The notes under the pieces: model-generated
Database searches by the model: none
Told to the model about the DNA's origin: nothing
Seen by the model: only the letters and a program-made list of their open reading frames with translations
Origin: a bacterium (Candidatus Gribaldobacteria) CG07_land_8_20_14_0_80_33_18
GTDB lineage: Bacteria > Patescibacteriota > Minisyncoccia > Minisyncoccales > CG1-02-41-26
Reading direction: 5' to 3'
DNA: 28,588 nucleotides
Assembly (NCBI GenBank): GCA_002779425.1
Contig: PEWP01000013.1
Span: 1 to 28,588 of the forward strand
Shown: positions 3,274 through 23,608 of the stretch, in pieces
Layout of the letters: each line of letters begins with the position of its first letter
How positions within the stretch are numbered: position 1 is the stretch's first letter
Translations under genes and position numbers: made by a program

Positions 3274-5784
3274 ATGTTTTTATCTAAACTCTTTGGCGCT
3301 TTTTTCAAAGCGCCTAATGAAAAATATTTAGAGAAACTTCAGCCAATTATTGAAAAAATTAATGAACTTGAACCAAAGTTTAAGAGTTTTTCTAAAGAAG
3401 AATTAAAGAAAAAAACCAATGAGCTTAAAGATCGATTAAAAAATGGAGAGAGTTTAAATGATGTTCTGGTGGAAGCTTTTGCTTTAGTAAGGGAGGCGGC
3501 GAAAAGAACATTAGACCAAAGACATTTTGATGTTCAATTAATGGGTGGAATAGTTTTGCATCAAGGAAAAATCGCTGAAATGAAAACCGGAGAAGGAAAA
3601 ACTTTAGCCGCTACTTTACCTCTATATTTAAATGCTTTAGAGGAAAAGGGTTGTCATTTAGTTACGGTTAATGATTATTTGACAAGAAGAGACACTGTTT
3701 GGATGGGACAAATTTATCACGCGCTCGGTTTGTCAGTTGGTTGTATAGCGCATGAGACAGCATATTTATATGACTCGGAATACAAAAAGCCAGCTGAGGA
3801 AAAGGAAAAAACGAGAGATGAATTGGGAGGCTTTTATATTGTTGAAGATTTTTTGAGACCTTGTACCAGAAAAGAGGCGTATTCAGCAGATATTACTTAC
3901 GGCACTAATAATGAATTTGCTTTTGATTATTTAAGGGATAATATGGTTTTTGATTTAAATCAGCAGGTTCAGAGACCTGCCCGCAATGCTTCGCATAGCG
4001 AAGCAGGCGGGGGATTTCACTATGCTATTGTCGATGAGGTCGATTCAATTTTAATTGACGAAGCCAGAACTCCTTTAATTATTTCTCAGCCAGATTTTGA
4101 GTCATCTAAGATGTATAAGGATTTTGCAGGAATAATTCCAAAATTGAAAAAAGATTCTGATTATTTAGTAGATGAAAAAAAGAAAGCAGCTACCTTAACT
4201 GAGGAGGGGATTAATAAACTGGAGAAAATTTTGGGGGTAGAAAACATCTATCAAGAGAAAGGGATAAAATATCTTCATCATTTAGAACAGGCGCTGCGGG
4301 CCCAGGTTTTTTTCGAGCGAGACAGAGATTATATTGTTAAAAATGGCCAGGTAATTATTATTGATGAGTTTACCGGTCGGCTTTTAATGGGTCGGCGATA
4401 TTCCGGGGGGCTCCATCAAGCGATAGAGGCAAAAGAAAGAGTAGAAGTTCAGGCCGAATCAAAGACTTTATCTACTATTACTTTTCAAAATTATTTCCGG
4501 CTTTATAAAAAATTAGGCGGGATGACAGGAACGGCCGCCACCTCAGCCGAAGAATTTGATAAAGTTTATGGTTTAGATGTAATAGTGATTTCAACCAATA
4601 AGCCAATGATAAGAAAGGATTTACCCGATAGAATTTATAAAACAGAGAGAGGAAAATATAAAGCACTTATAGAAGAGATTAAAGAAAGACACAAAACAGG
4701 CCAGCCTCTTTTAGTGGGGACGAGATCGGTTGAGAGAAATGAATATTTATCTAAATTACTTTCTCGGGAAGGAATTTCTCATCAAATTTTAAATGCCAAG
4801 CATCATGAGCAAGAAGGTCAAATTATTGCTCAGACAGGAAGATGGGGAGCTGTGACCATTGCCACAAATATGGCAGGTCGTGGGGTTGACATAATTTTGG
4901 GAGGAAATCCTCAAAATCCAGAAGAAGCAAAAAAAATTATTGGTTTGAATGGCCTCCATGTTATTGGCACCGAAAGGCATGAGGCAAGAAGGATTGACAA
5001 TCAGTTGCGGGGAAGAACAGGGAGACAAGGAGATCCCGGTTCGTCTCAATTTTTTATTTCGTTAGATGATGAATTAATGCGGATTTTTGGCGGAGAAAAA
5101 ATAAAATCTTTAATGGATACTTTTAAATTTCCAGAAGATGAACCAATTGAATTAAAGATAATTTCAAAAACCATAGAAAATGCCCAAAGCAGGGTGGAAG
5201 GATTTAATTTTGATATCAGAAAACATGTTTTAGAATATGATGAAGTAATGAACAAACACCGCGAAACAATTTATAAATTAAGGAAAAGATTATTGGAAGA
5301 ACCGGAAAAAATTCAAACGGAGCGGAGCATTAAAACTCAAATTTTAGAGATTATTGAAAATGAAATTAAGAGAATTGTTGAGAATTATGAATTGTCAGAA
5401 ATTTTTGAAGAGATAAAAACAATTTTTCCTTTATCCGAAGAAGCAATACTAAAGATGAAAGAAATGGAGAAAGAAGAAATTTTTAATTATTTAATTAACC
5501 TGGCAAAAAAAATCTATGAGCAGAAAGAAGAAAAGGATGGAAAAGAAAATATGAGAATACTTGAGAAGATGGTTTATTTGCGAATCATTGATAGTCTATG
5601 GCAAGAACATTTAGAGAACATGGAATATTTAAAGGAGTCGGTTGGTTTACGGGCTTACGGAGGAAGAGATCCTTTGGTTGAATATAAAACCGAAGGCCAT
5701 AAGATGTTTAAAAATTTACTAACTAACATTAATTTCCATCTTATTCGAACCATTTTCAAGCTGACCTTAACTCTTAAGATATGA
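3274..5784 (+). CDS. secA: Preprotein translocase ATPase SecA
   Basis: MKTGEGKT, VTVNDYL, YGTNNEFAFDYLRDN, IVDEVDSILIDEARTPLII, GMTGTA, ATNMAGRGVDI and QLRGRTGRQGDPG. No C-terminal SEC-C motif. Confidence 0.98.
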   Translation: MFLSKLFGAFFKAPNEKYLEKLQPIIEKINELEPKFKSFSKEELKKKTNELKDRLKNGESLNDVLVEAFALVREAAKRTLDQRHFDVQLMGGIVLHQGKIAEMKTGEGKTLAATLPLYLNALEEKGCHLVTVNDYLTRRDTVWMGQIYHALGLSVGCIAHETAYLYDSEYKKPAEEKEKTRDELGGFYIVEDFLRPCTRKEAYSADITYGTNNEFAFDYLRDNMVFDLNQQVQRPARNASHSEAGGGFHYAIVDEVDSILIDEARTPLIISQPDFESSKMYKDFAGIIPKLKKDSDYLVDEKKKAATLTEEGINKLEKILGVENIYQEKGIKYLHHLEQALRAQVFFERDRDYIVKNGQVIIIDEFTGRLLMGRRYSGGLHQAIEAKERVEVQAESKTLSTITFQNYFRLYKKLGGMTGTAATSAEEFDKVYGLDVIVISTNKPMIRKDLPDRIYKTERGKYKALIEEIKERHKTGQPLLVGTRSVERNEYLSKLLSREGISHQILNAKHHEQEGQIIAQTGRWGAVTIATNMAGRGVDIILGGNPQNPEEAKKIIGLNGLHVIGTERHEARRIDNQLRGRTGRQGDPGSSQFFISLDDELMRIFGGEKIKSLMDTFKFPEDEPIELKIISKTIENAQSRVEGFNFDIRKHVLEYDEVMNKHRETIYKLRKRLLEEPEKIQTERSIKTQILEIIENEIKRIVENYELSEIFEEIKTIFPLSEEAILKMKEMEKEEIFNYLINLAKKIYEQKEEKDGKENMRILEKMVYLRIIDSLWQEHLENMEYLKESVGLRAYGGRDPLVEYKTEGHKMFKNLLTNINFHLIRTIFKLTLTLKI
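3976..4011. repeat. 36-nt in-frame palindromic insertion in secA
   Basis: CCTGCCCGCAATGCTTCGCATAGCGAAGCAGGCGGG with stem TGCTTCGC-ATA-GCGAAGCA; encodes PARNASHSEAGG. Confidence 0.9.
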
Positions 5785-10792: not shown

Positions 10793-12394
10793 ATGAAAAA
10801 AGAAGAGATAAATTTTTTCGGCCTAACAACTTTTCGTAATGAAAAGAAAAAATTTGGGATTAAACTTGACGATAGGCGTCGGCATTTTTATGCTGTGGGA
10901 AAAACCGGAATGGGAAAAACCGAACTTTTAAAAAATATGGCAATTCAGGATATAAGAAATGGTTGTGGAATTGGTTTTATTGATCCTCATGGCGAAGCAG
11001 CCGAAGACCTGCTTAATTTTATTCCCAAAGAGCGAATAGATGATGTCGTTTATTTTAATCCAGCTGATTTTGAATATCCGATTGCTTTTAATGTAATGGA
11101 AAAAGTTAGCGCTACCCATCGGCATTTAATAGCTTCTGGCCTGATGGGGGTTTTTAAAAAAATTTGGCCTGATGTTTGGTCTGCCCGGATGGAATATATT
11201 TTAAATAATTCTATTTTAGCTCTTCTTGAATATCCAGATTCTACTTTATTAGGGATAAATCGAATTTTAGCCGACCCTGATTATCGGAAAAAAGTTGTTG
11301 AAAATGTTACTGATCCGGTGATTAAAGCTTTTTGGACCCAGGAATTCGCCCGTTATACCGCTCGCTATGAAGTTGAAGCGACAGCTGCTATTCAGAATAA
11401 AATCGGCCAGTTTATTTCTGCTCCTTTAATTAGAAACAGTATTGGACAACTTCATTCTTTAATTAACATGAGAGAAGTGATGGATAAGGGAAAAATTTTA
11501 ATTGTTAATTTATCAAAAGGGAAAATCGGAGAAGATCCCTCGCGTCTTTTAGGAGGGTTATTGGTTACCAAATTACAATTGGCGGCAATGAGTCGGGTTG
11601 ATATGCCGGAGGAAAAAAGAAAAGATTTCTTTTTATATGTTGATGAATTTCAAAATTTCGCTACAGAGAGTTTTATTAATATTTTGTCTGAGGCAAGAAA
11701 ATATCGGCTTTGTTTAATTCTTTCCCATCAGTACATTACTCAAATGGAGGAGGAAGTTAGAGATGCGGTTTTTGGCAATATTGGCACTTTACTTTGTTTT
11801 CGGGTTGGAGCAGAAGACGCTGAATATTTAGAAAAAGAACTTACTCCCCAGCTGACTGCCGCTGATTTAGTTAATTTGGGAAAATTCAACATTTATTTAA
11901 AATTAATGATTGATGGAATCGCTGGCGATCCATTTTCTGCCGAAACCTTATTCCCCTTTGAAAGACCAAAAGAATCTTATAAAGAGGAAATAATAAAATT
12001 ATCGCGAGAGAAATATAGTGCTTCCAGAAAAATAGTAGAAGAAAAGATTGCTCAATGGACAGGAAATTATATTTTAAAAGAAGCTCCTCCTGCGCCGCCG
12101 GCTCTTTACGATGCCCAATGTAAAATCTGCGGCAAATGGATAAAAGTTCCTTTTAGACCAGACCTCAAAAGACCAATTTATTGCAAAACTTGTTTAAAAA
12201 AAGTTGAAGAAAAAAAGGAAAAAATTGTTGAAATTAAAACCATTTCTTTAAAAGAACTTTTACCTAAAGATGAGGAAAAAAACAAAAAACCAGTTTCTGA
12301 ACCTGAGTTAAAAAAAGTACTCAATGAGGCCTTAGAAGAAAAAGTAAAAAAAGGTATAATAAAACCAGGAGAGACAGTAAATTTTGACAAATGA
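10793..12394 (+). CDS. VirD4/TraD/HerA-like (DUF87-type) P-loop ATPase with C-terminal CxxC-x17-CxxC zinc ribbon
   Basis: DDRRRHFYAVGKTGMGKT (Walker A), IDPHGE, LYVDEFQNF (Walker B), LSEARKY and CKIC-17aa-CKTC. Start set at ATG 10793 (MKKEEINFFG). Confidence 0.85.
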   Translation: MKKEEINFFGLTTFRNEKKKFGIKLDDRRRHFYAVGKTGMGKTELLKNMAIQDIRNGCGIGFIDPHGEAAEDLLNFIPKERIDDVVYFNPADFEYPIAFNVMEKVSATHRHLIASGLMGVFKKIWPDVWSARMEYILNNSILALLEYPDSTLLGINRILADPDYRKKVVENVTDPVIKAFWTQEFARYTARYEVEATAAIQNKIGQFISAPLIRNSIGQLHSLINMREVMDKGKILIVNLSKGKIGEDPSRLLGGLLVTKLQLAAMSRVDMPEEKRKDFFLYVDEFQNFATESFINILSEARKYRLCLILSHQYITQMEEEVRDAVFGNIGTLLCFRVGAEDAEYLEKELTPQLTAADLVNLGKFNIYLKLMIDGIAGDPFSAETLFPFERPKESYKEEIIKLSREKYSASRKIVEEKIAQWTGNYILKEAPPAPPALYDAQCKICGKWIKVPFRPDLKRPIYCKTCLKKVEEKKEKIVEIKTISLKELLPKDEEKNKKPVSEPELKKVLNEALEEKVKKGIIKPGETVNFDK

Positions 12395-13566
12395 TTATGT
12401 TAAAAACACTTAAAGATTTTAATTTTTTCGATAAAAAAGTTTTAGTTAGAACAGATTTTAATGTGCCAATTGAAAATGGGAGAATTATTGATAGTTTTCG
12501 AATTGAGAGAACTCTTCCCACAATAAATTACCTTAGAGAAAAAGGTGCAAAAGTAATATTATTGTCTCATCAAGGCGATGGACTTTCCTTTCAACCAGTA
12601 GCCCTAAAATTAGAAGAACTATTAAAAAAACCGATAAAATTTTTAAATGACTGTTGCGGCAAAAAAGTAGAAAAAGAAATAAATAAAATGAAAAGTGGTC
12701 AGATAATTCTTTTAGAGAATTTAAGATTTTATCCCCAAGAAAAAGAAAATAATTTAGAATTTGCCAAAAATCTCGCAAAATTAGGCGATATTTATGTTTC
12801 TGAAGCATTTTCTGTTTCTCATCGTTCTCATGCTTCAATAGTTTCTTTACCGTTTCTTTTACAGGCAAAAGCTATCGGTTTTTTATTTGAAAAAGAAATG
12901 GAAACTTTATCTAAGGTATTAGGGCGCGCAGCGGCCAGGCCCGCCTGCGCAGGCAGGCCATTGGTTATTATTATTGGCGGGAAAAAGATTTCTTCCAAAC
13001 TTAAGGTAATCTCCAGTTTTATTGAAAAAGCTGACCATCTTCTTTTTGGAGGCGAATTGGCAAATGTAATTTTGAGAGTAAAAGGAATATGTGTGGGCAA
13101 GCCTTGGCCAGAAAAAGAAATGATTGAAGAAATTGGAAAAATAAATTTAACTGATACAAAAATTCATTTGCCGATGGATGTAATTGTTTCACCTGACGAG
13201 ACAGGAGAAATATATATTAAGGAAACCGGTCCGGGAAAGGTAAGAAAGGAGGAGGAAATTTTTGATATTGGTCCGGAAACAATTCAAACTTTTTCTTCTA
13301 TAATTAAAGAAGCAAAAACAATTATTTGGTCGGGCCCTTTAGGTTTAATTGAGAATAAACTATTTAAAAAAGGAACAGAAACAATTGCTCAAAGGATAGT
13401 TGCCAATACTTCGGCTTTTTCTATTGCTGGCGGGGGAGACACAATAAAGATTCTTCGCGAGCTTAATTTTATTGACAAATTTTCTTTTATCTCAACCGGA
13501 GGAAGCGCTATGCTTTCTTTTTTAGCTGAAGAAAAACTACCAGGAATTGAGGCGCTAAAAGTTTAG
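12391..13566 (+). CDS. pgk: Phosphoglycerate kinase (divergent)
   Basis: VRTDFNVP, LENLRF, SHRSHAS, IFDIGP, GGGDT, ISTGG and KLPGIEAL. Confidence 0.92.
   Translation: MIMLKTLKDFNFFDKKVLVRTDFNVPIENGRIIDSFRIERTLPTINYLREKGAKVILLSHQGDGLSFQPVALKLEELLKKPIKFLNDCCGKKVEKEINKMKSGQIILLENLRFYPQEKENNLEFAKNLAKLGDIYVSEAFSVSHRSHASIVSLPFLLQAKAIGFLFEKEMETLSKVLGRAAARPACAGRPLVIIIGGKKISSKLKVISSFIEKADHLLFGGELANVILRVKGICVGKPWPEKEMIEEIGKINLTDTKIHLPMDVIVSPDETGEIYIKETGPGKVRKEEEIFDIGPETIQTFSSIIKEAKTIIWSGPLGLIENKLFKKGTETIAQRIVANTSAFSIAGGGDTIKILRELNFIDKFSFISTGGSAMLSFLAEEKLPGIEALKV
12940..12957. repeat. 18-nt in-frame palindromic insertion in pgk
   Basis: CCCGCCTGCGCAGGCAGG contains the perfect palindrome GCCTGCGCAGGC and encodes PACAGR. 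Confidence 0.85.
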
Positions 13567-22807: not shown

Positions 22808-23608
22808 ATGATTTATAATATTAATGCTTATTATTTAGCTCGGGGAATCAATTTGAATAAAATAGAAAAGAAAAGAGGGGGCATTTGGAGGCTTCAAACA
22901 AAAACCAGAACCTGTCTGGTTTTTGAAGTTGAACCAGAACGTCCCATTTTTCTTTATTTTTTTGGTGTAGTAATTTTTATTAATCTTGAGAAAAAAACAG
23001 AGAGAAAAATAATTAAGAGCATAGAGAAATTTTTAATTAATCCGGTGCCAGAAAATGAAATTCCCAGCGAAGAATACAAAGTTGTAGAAGATGAAAATCT
23101 TATAAAAGATACAGTTGAATTTGAACAAGTGAAAATTAAAAAATTTGACCTGAATAGAAGAGAAATTATTGCTAACATTTTAGCTCAATCGGTTGCTATT
23201 GATTATTTCGAAAATTTAATTGACCAAATTTCGTTAAAATTTGAAGAAATAAACTCTGTTTTGGAAAAAAGAGGAAATTTAAAAATAAAAGGCAGGCAGG
23301 TCATAAAATTAATTGGTTTTAATAATACTATTCTTAGTTTTATTCTTTCTAAATTATCTCTTCTTGATAAACCCGATATTTTATGGGAAAGAGAAGATTT
23401 AGAATCGCTTTTTAAAAATTTGCGTTCAATGTTTGAGTTAGACGATAGATTTAAAAATTTAGAGATAAAAATTAATTTTATTCAAGAAAATTCAAAACTT
23501 ATGTTACAAACCTTAAACAATCGCCGAGCAGAAATGCTTGAATTAACTATTATTGTTTTGATTTTAATTGAAGTAATTTTGTTTATTTACGAGATATTTC
23601 TAAAATGA
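22808..23608 (+). CDS. RMD1/YagE (DUF155) family protein
   Basis: LYFFGVVIF, LAQSVAIDYFE, LLDKPDILWE, FELDDRF and C-terminal LELTIIVLILIEV. Confidence 0.8.
   Translation: MIYNINAYYLARGINLNKIEKKRGGIWRLQTKTRTCLVFEVEPERPIFLYFFGVVIFINLEKKTERKIIKSIEKFLINPVPENEIPSEEYKVVEDENLIKDTVEFEQVKIKKFDLNRREIIANILAQSVAIDYFENLIDQISLKFEEINSVLEKRGNLKIKGRQVIKLIGFNNTILSFILSKLSLLDKPDILWEREDLESLFKNLRSMFELDDRFKNLEIKINFIQENSKLMLQTLNNRRAEMLELTIIVLILIEVILFIYEIFLK

Follow-up and report, generated by a model that had tools for sequence, protein, structure and literature searches.

Why should two housekeeping genes of a small, AT-rich bacterial genome each carry, in frame, a GC-rich palindrome with the same ends? The question arises from the stretch shown above, contig PEWP01000013.1 of the groundwater bacterium Candidatus Gribaldobacteria CG07_land_8_20_14_0_80_33_18, where the SecA gene holds a unit of 36 nt and the phosphoglycerate kinase (PGK) gene a unit of 18 nt. 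The window, meaning this whole stretch of 28,588 nt, is contig C34 of a fragmented metagenome-assembled genome (MAG) of 502 kb in 57 contigs, with 33% G+C and a marker-gene completeness of 99.7%. We refer to this source genome as G000 and use other G numbers for other genomes, C for contigs and L for fetched stretches. As argued below, the two units are very likely copies of one family of tiny GC-rich hairpin insertion elements, non-autonomous and selfish-like. The genes and copies at issue are these:

3274..5784, + strand: secA, host of the long copy (open reading frame [ORF] list and translation; SecA Pfam domains on an identical database protein).
12391..13566, + strand: pgk, host of the short copy (ORF list and translation; PF00162 on homologues).
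3976..4011, + strand: long 36-nt copy, top strand on + (sequence; DNA fold of -15.4 kcal/mol, z = -5.1; absent from orthologues).
12940..12957, - strand: short 18-nt copy of b-type, top strand on - (sequence; five orthologues without it).

The secA unit reads CCTGCCCGC, then 18 nt, then GCAGGCGGG; the pgk unit reads CCCGCCTGCGCAGGCAGG. Common to both are the 9-nt ends, CCYGCCYGC and GCRGGCRGG, with the 18-nt core confined to the secA unit. Once reverse-complemented, the secA unit shares its left 9-mer with the pgk unit and departs from it by a single base in the right 9-mer, so the two copies are oppositely oriented on the + strand. All of this bears out a sequence-only reading of the window, which had written out the reverse complement of the secA unit, noted the shared ends with their one mismatch and the 18-nt spacer, and placed the secA copy a few residues before motif II (IVDEVD). 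Both units have a G+C content of ~75-83%, compared to 33% for the genome. In protein terms, the secA unit codes for the 12 SecA residues 235-246, PARNASHSEAGG, ending five residues ahead of IVDEVD (with DEVD starting at 254), and the pgk unit for PGK residues 184-189 (PACAGR), read on the + strand.

If the two units belong to a family, its termini should recur, and a genome-wide search, as suggested by the sequence-only reading, did return further copies, with 21 loci in G000 carrying these termini at a density of about one copy per 25 kb. For the short form we used a degenerate 18-mer, CCYGCCYGCGCRGGCRGG, and as a control the same pattern read backwards. This gave 16 exact short copies in G000, versus ~6e-7 expected by chance at 33% G+C; the reversed pattern gave none in G000 and none in 400 other genomes. 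Also present are four 36-nt copies (C5, C34, C35, C37), one 42-nt copy in leuS (C52), a 20-nt variant (C23) and two near-variants, and at two loci (C23, C55) copies form head-to-tail dimers. About 15 of the 21 loci lie within genes identified by Pfam. Besides secA and pgk, the hosts are infB, ligA, a POR-like gene, a family-2 glycosyltransferase gene (tandem dimer), a Mur ligase gene, mnmA (twice), ppdK, leuS and ksgA, together with pcm, pth and archease, the last in pieces at two contig ends. The reading frame is kept in at least 13 housekeeping genes carrying copies. Both orientations and all three frames are used, yielding peptides such as LPAQAG, PACAG(G/R), PARAGG and CLRR(R/Q).

Some sequences lie at the margins of this family. 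Within the window, a lone right arm, GGCAGGCAGG, occurs at 23289-23301 inside the ORF 22808-23608 with no matching left arm, and could be what is left of a copy or be due to chance. G000 also holds several other GC-rich hairpin families, including a second abundant repeat in which a variable GC hairpin is followed by GCGGGAAATTCGCGAAC (for example at C1:4244-4290, C5:5652-5681, C27:10630-10674 and C52:17370-17395).

Comparison with orthologues indicates that the copies were added to the genes. In SecA of 19/19 related genomes (related genera), VQR runs directly into GF without the 36 nt, and the closest database homologues, of 824 amino acids compared to 836 here, show the same gap; the nearest named one, from a Candidatus Nealsonbacteria MAG, is 71% identical. 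The solved SecA structure of T. maritima (3DIN) likewise lacks the 12 residues, so that orthologues without the loop, which the sequence-only reading had proposed to look for, do exist. The PGK, LigA and LeuRS sites and both MnmA sites are without copies in 5/5 related genomes, and the nearest PGK homologues in the database have 385 amino acids versus 391 here. Deleting the element in silico restores the orthologous codons and leaves no target duplication at the secA, ligA, leuS and second mnmA sites. At pgk the edges are ambiguous: a CAGGCC direct repeat flanks the copy on both sides, and its boundaries can be moved by up to 6 nt. On these alignments, the copies are precise insertions without target-site duplication.

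One stretch beside the pgk copy deserves separate mention:

12922..12939, + strand: 18 nt of exceptionally high G+C, immediately upstream of the pgk copy (sequence; unalignable with orthologues).

In the local PGK alignment, the G000 protein has 7 extra residues, with LGRAAA replacing a conserved (K/R)xNPA, and this stretch may be a decayed second copy of the element.

The SecA insert sits between the conserved VQR and the DEVD strand. An AlphaFold model, again along the lines of the sequence-only reading, shows residues 235-246 as coil between a helix at 212-223 and the DEVD strand at 250-254; the model as a whole is poor (mean pLDDT 60), and the loop could not be placed in three dimensions. 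A second insertion is known nearby: SecA of another genus (L014, G024:C7) has a different 48-nt palindrome (TCCCGA...TCGGGA, 16 residues) between VQ and GF, at nearly the same position as the G000 insert. The coincidence marks a spot where insertions are tolerated, happen readily, or both.

Because G000 is a fragmented MAG, and because contigs C6 and C55 end within a gene beside copies, one might suspect an assembly or sequencing artefact. This is extremely improbable: an independent contig assembled by the Joint Genome Institute (JGI) from another sample bears the identical secA insertion, every host gene stays in frame, and the family occurs in ~50 independent genomes. The gene broken at these ends is that for archease, whose halves adjoin a single copy (C6:5139-5239) and a dimer (C55:20872-21069); here the assembly probably broke at the repeat.

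What, then, are the long and short units to each other? An alignment of 12 distinct 36-mers from 6 genomes supports a fold consisting of a free CCTG tail, a 5-bp CCCGC/GCGGG outer stem, a small internal loop, an 8-bp inner stem and a triloop, which is ATA in the secA copy. In these 36-mers, 91% of cells are paired in this fold, the pair 16-26 being UA in seven, AU in five and unpaired in none, and the covariation score was reached by none of 500 shuffles. A full-length 15-bp hairpin register was rejected, as no covariation supports it. The 9-nt ends are common to both units, as first read, although they do not form a simple 9-bp inverted repeat; rather, they comprise the CCTG tail and the 5-bp stem. 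We rejected strand-specific folding, since the top strand and the bottom strand hardly differ in how well they fold, and no matching family exists in Rfam.

In terms of this fold, the c-type short form is a long form whose apical stem-loop has been swapped for a GCAG loop, with termini constant and the interior modular (0-26 nt). An origin of the long form by nested insertion was rejected: its 18-nt inner core never occurs alone in G000, which argues for one undivided unit over a nested pair.

It might be objected that the two units are unrelated GC-rich palindromes with convergent ends, as would be conceivable in a genome harboring several other GC-rich hairpin families and since 5/11 short-form carriers have no c-type long form. 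We regard this as very unlikely. The ends match at 17/18 positions, and the T·G and C·A positions of the asymmetric termini never vary among the long forms of the 45 genomes that carry them. The two forms also tend to occur together, as described below, and in G337 (L232:1001-1060, on C8) they are physically joined, a short copy being directly followed by partial long-form copies in tandem. Hence the proposal that the secA and pgk units are long and short versions of one element in opposite orientations gains support from their common termini and from their co-occurrence both in G000 and in distant Patescibacteria.

To place G000 in context, we screened 400 evenly drawn Patescibacteria genomes. 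The short form is present in 11/400, with up to 15 copies each, and the long form, written as CCTGCCCGC-N(12-26)-GCAGGCGGG, in 45/400; the reversed controls gave 0 in both cases. Taken together, the motif is absent from ~87% of the sample, carriers making up about one genome in eight (~50 genomes). Long forms occur in 6/11 short-form carriers versus 39/389 non-carriers (odds ratio 10.8, p = 4e-4, with the reservation that related genomes are not independent). Among the 38 genomes of the same family as G000, the 18-mer search found the short form in none. One 36-mer is identical across four families (G000 C37, G089, G181 and G220), and the 20-nt variant of G000 recurs in two other genomes. Such a patchy spread of near-identical sequence suggests horizontal movement of the element, a sequence kept constant by the demands of recognition, or both. 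In another Patescibacteria genome, G086 (L297, C12:7000-10600), one isoleucyl-tRNA synthetase gene has two in-frame family members, of 33 nt and 30 nt.

The strict conservation of the termini across distant families implies sequence-specific recognition by something. Such recognition could serve the host, the motif being kept for a function at the DNA level (for example in DNA uptake, in binding nucleoid or recombination proteins, or in signaling for replication or repair) with the copies in genes as tolerated by-products. In favor of this, Patescibacteria rely on imported DNA and nucleotides. Nevertheless, we consider a host function quite unlikely. The density of about one copy per 25 kb is low for it, and absence from 38/38 genomes of the same family and from most of the phylum sample argues against any core function. 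Moreover, none of the tested insertions is conserved in orthologues, and the pgk copy is already mutated in a 99%-identical strain variant, which has a Gly-to-Ala change within it.

How do essential genes put up with these inserts? One answer would leave the proteins unchanged, if the inserts were removed from the RNA as tiny introns or skipped during translation. There is a precedent in the byp elements of yeast mitochondria, which the ribosome skips and whose length is not bound to multiples of three. The resemblance of GC-rich hairpins in an AT-rich genome to these elements, the strength of the hairpins and the closeness of the SecA insert to the catalytic motif of an essential ATPase all make the thought attractive.

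The lengths of the inserts speak for a different answer. In a set of 85 copies from ten other genomes, 23/65 copies with a length divisible by three lie deep within long ORFs, compared to 1/20 of the others (Fisher p = 0.009). The lone exception, in a DUF2298 gene, has a 20-nt core that adjoining bases may bring up to whole codons. Skipping by the RNA or the ribosome would make length irrelevant, so this bias argues for translation. G000 itself is in line with this, since its gene-internal copies are all of 18, 36 or 42 nt and free of stops in the frame used, and since the 20-nt variant, its only variant that is not a multiple of three, sits upstream of the rplB start. No stop codon occurs in the short forms, whichever of the six frames is read, and the 36-nt form has a stop in just one. 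Finally, copies in both orientations leave no common RNA signal to act upon, and Rfam offers no match. Removal or skipping thus appears highly improbable, and we infer that the inserts are transcribed and translated.

The surroundings of the copies offer hints as to where the element lands. After deletion of the element in silico, 6/21 G000 sites lie in arrays with a 7-nt period, versus 0.37% of random positions, and two more lie in an 8-nt array. The arrays are as follows:

C22:12870-12930, C43:2170-2240, C52:14730-14810, C35:2670-2745 and C6:5120-5175 of G000: AT-rich 7-nt arrays holding elements, with units AAAAATC, CAAACTA and GAAAATT.

In G109, 8/9 sites fall in such periodic arrays. The leuS array is also present in the orthologue from an element-free genome, which means that arrays can precede insertion. 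We therefore rejected, as a general rule, the notion that the 7-nt arrays are target-site duplications, all the more so as the SecA, LigA and second MnmA sites show no duplication. Elsewhere, copies lie at other palindromes. In G089, 5/17 copies lie within or beside the loops of other palindromes, compared to 1.7% of random positions. A clean nested insertion is seen in G373 (C1; L283:1559-1609, 808-830), where a hairpin, TGTGCGA...TCGCACA, that flanks a RAYT-like Y1 gene (RAYT, transposase associated with repetitive extragenic palindromic [REP] sequences) has its loop interrupted by a CCTG-family member of 27 nt. Here the upstream hairpin copy is invaded and its intact twin stands on the other side of the Y1 transposase gene. 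From these sites we infer a preference for DNA able to become single-stranded.

As to what moves the element, the systems formed by REPs and RAYTs (REPtrons, REPINs) are the obvious comparison. Like REPs in those systems, the element is a hairpin with a single-stranded tag, makes no target duplication and presumably moves as single-stranded DNA. The Y1/RAYT domain PF01797 (Y1_Tnp) is common in the phylum (189/400 genomes) and more frequent among long-form carriers (35/45 versus 154/355 others; odds ratio 4.6). Unlike in those systems, however, G000 has no Y1 gene, and in five carriers the hairpins beside RAYT-like genes are of other kinds. We also searched for an autonomous parent copy between neighboring copies: close pairs of elements enclose a SocA/helix-turn-helix (HTH) cassette, housekeeping genes or ORFs of unknown function, with no recombinase among them. 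In G103 (L294:983-2413, on C6), two identical 30-nt members in direct orientation, the only two family copies of that genome, enclose an HTH-SocA/Panacea antitoxin-like gene along with an ORF of 118 residues.

Several observations weigh against reading the units as mobile elements, or against parts of that reading. No cognate transposase or other mobilizing enzyme was found, PF01797 having no match in G000, itself a fragmented MAG. The enrichment of Y1 genes in carriers may only reflect repeat-rich genomes, and RAYT as the mover was rejected because 12 RAYT-like genes in the five carrier genomes are bracketed by their own, different hairpins. Presence/absence polymorphism within a species was not seen, and an exact-match scan of metagenome contigs gave no match for the exact empty secA site. 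One JGI contig (L179; 3300008010) looked like a clean empty secA allele and had to be rejected, as its first ~190 nt are divergent. This contig carries no element in positions 1-190, where identity is ~80%, and shows no difference from the window downstream of the secA insertion site; it represents a chimeric assembly, another lineage, or a recombinant with a breakpoint near the element. Lastly, the description of the SecA insert as a surface loop comes mainly from alignments, given the poor model, and translation of the inserts was deduced from the length filter, not observed.

Even with these points counted, a family of non-autonomous insertion elements accounts best for the two units. The element consists of a 4-nt CCTG tail and a hairpin with a CCCGC/GCGGG foot, 18 to ~44 nt in total, the apical part being a 4-nt loop in the short form or a second, covarying stem-loop in the long forms. 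It would have entered the G000 lineage by horizontal transfer and spread in the form of a hairpin of single-stranded DNA, with an enzyme acting on it in trans. Preferred targets would be transiently single-stranded or structured DNA, namely AT-rich 7-nt arrays in G000 and palindrome loops elsewhere. In genes, near-exclusively copies with a length divisible by three persist, and these would add 6-14 residues at tolerant positions.

A bolder version, which we find doubtful but worth stating, would make the CCTG hairpins a phylum-wide superfamily and, at down to 18 nt, the smallest mobile DNA yet seen, owning no transposase, moved by a host, phage or hijacked HUH enzyme and inserting specifically into single-stranded loops. 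If so, the 7-nt arrays that AT-rich Patescibacteria carry in core genes would be landing pads or footprints, and the elements would be a main source of protein-length change in reduced genomes.

Where does the family stand among known repeats? GTAG/CGTC-tagged REPs are palindromes of 20-40 bp, some of them within known genes and including Rickettsia RPE-4 and RPE-6; the CGTC class is without a dedicated transposase, and its mover was left open (Di Nocera et al. 2013, PMC3733652). The family described here is likewise a short, GC-rich, multicopy stem-loop ending on one side in a conserved tetranucleotide (18-44 nt; 21 loci in 0.5 Mb), occurs as singles and dimers, and has some copies in replication, repair and translation genes, at times at similar sites across species. 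It differs in its unpaired end, which is CCTG (top) or CAGG (bottom) with neither GTAG nor CGTC at either end, in a shortest form of 18 nt, in combining constant termini with a modular interior, and in its host, Patescibacteria. REPs are also predominantly extragenic, in contrast to the ~15/21 loci within genes here. A miniature inverted-repeat transposable element would have terminal inverted repeats plus a target-site duplication and descend from a parent insertion sequence; here the ends are imperfect inverted repeats, but there is no target-site duplication (pgk being ambiguous) and no parent insertion sequence was found between paired copies.

Rickettsia palindromic elements (RPEs) of the RPE-1 type, reportedly selfish palindromes of ~100-150 bp, are said to insert in frame into essential genes and to be translated. 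In-frame, protein-compatible palindromic insertion into protein-coding genes is what we find here as well. The length of 18-44 nt and the unrelated host lineage distinguish the family from RPE-1, to which it is presumably unrelated in sequence. In cyanobacteria, small dispersed repeats, reportedly palindromes of ~20 nt that insert into each other and into other repeats, share with our family the very small size and the insertion into other repeats; they differ in sequence and host and are mostly intergenic. The GC clusters of AT-rich yeast mitochondrial genomes, too, are short mobile GC-rich palindromes (PMC8811140). Like these and the byp elements, the present family occurs in an AT-rich genome and also within coding sequence, with the difference from byp that its length filter points to plain translation. 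Our literature searches found no description of palindromic in-frame elements in the candidate phyla radiation (CPR)/Patescibacteria. Since it departs from the REP families in its tag, in the absence of its copies beside RAYT-like genes and in its location within genes, we do not file the family among them, but regard it as new and similar in kind to intragenic REP/RPE elements.

For the organism, the finding means that a near-minimal genome of 0.5 Mb bears selfish DNA in indispensable genes, among them those for SecA, PGK, IF-2, DNA ligase and aminoacyl-tRNA synthetases, and the sites hit amount to a natural map of insertion-tolerant positions in essential proteins. For annotation, it accounts for odd GC-rich peptides such as LPAQAG, PACAGR and PARNASHSxAGG, and for some contig breaks. 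For REP-like repeats without a transposase, constant termini with a covarying interior, identical between distant families, provide a handle for finding the mover.

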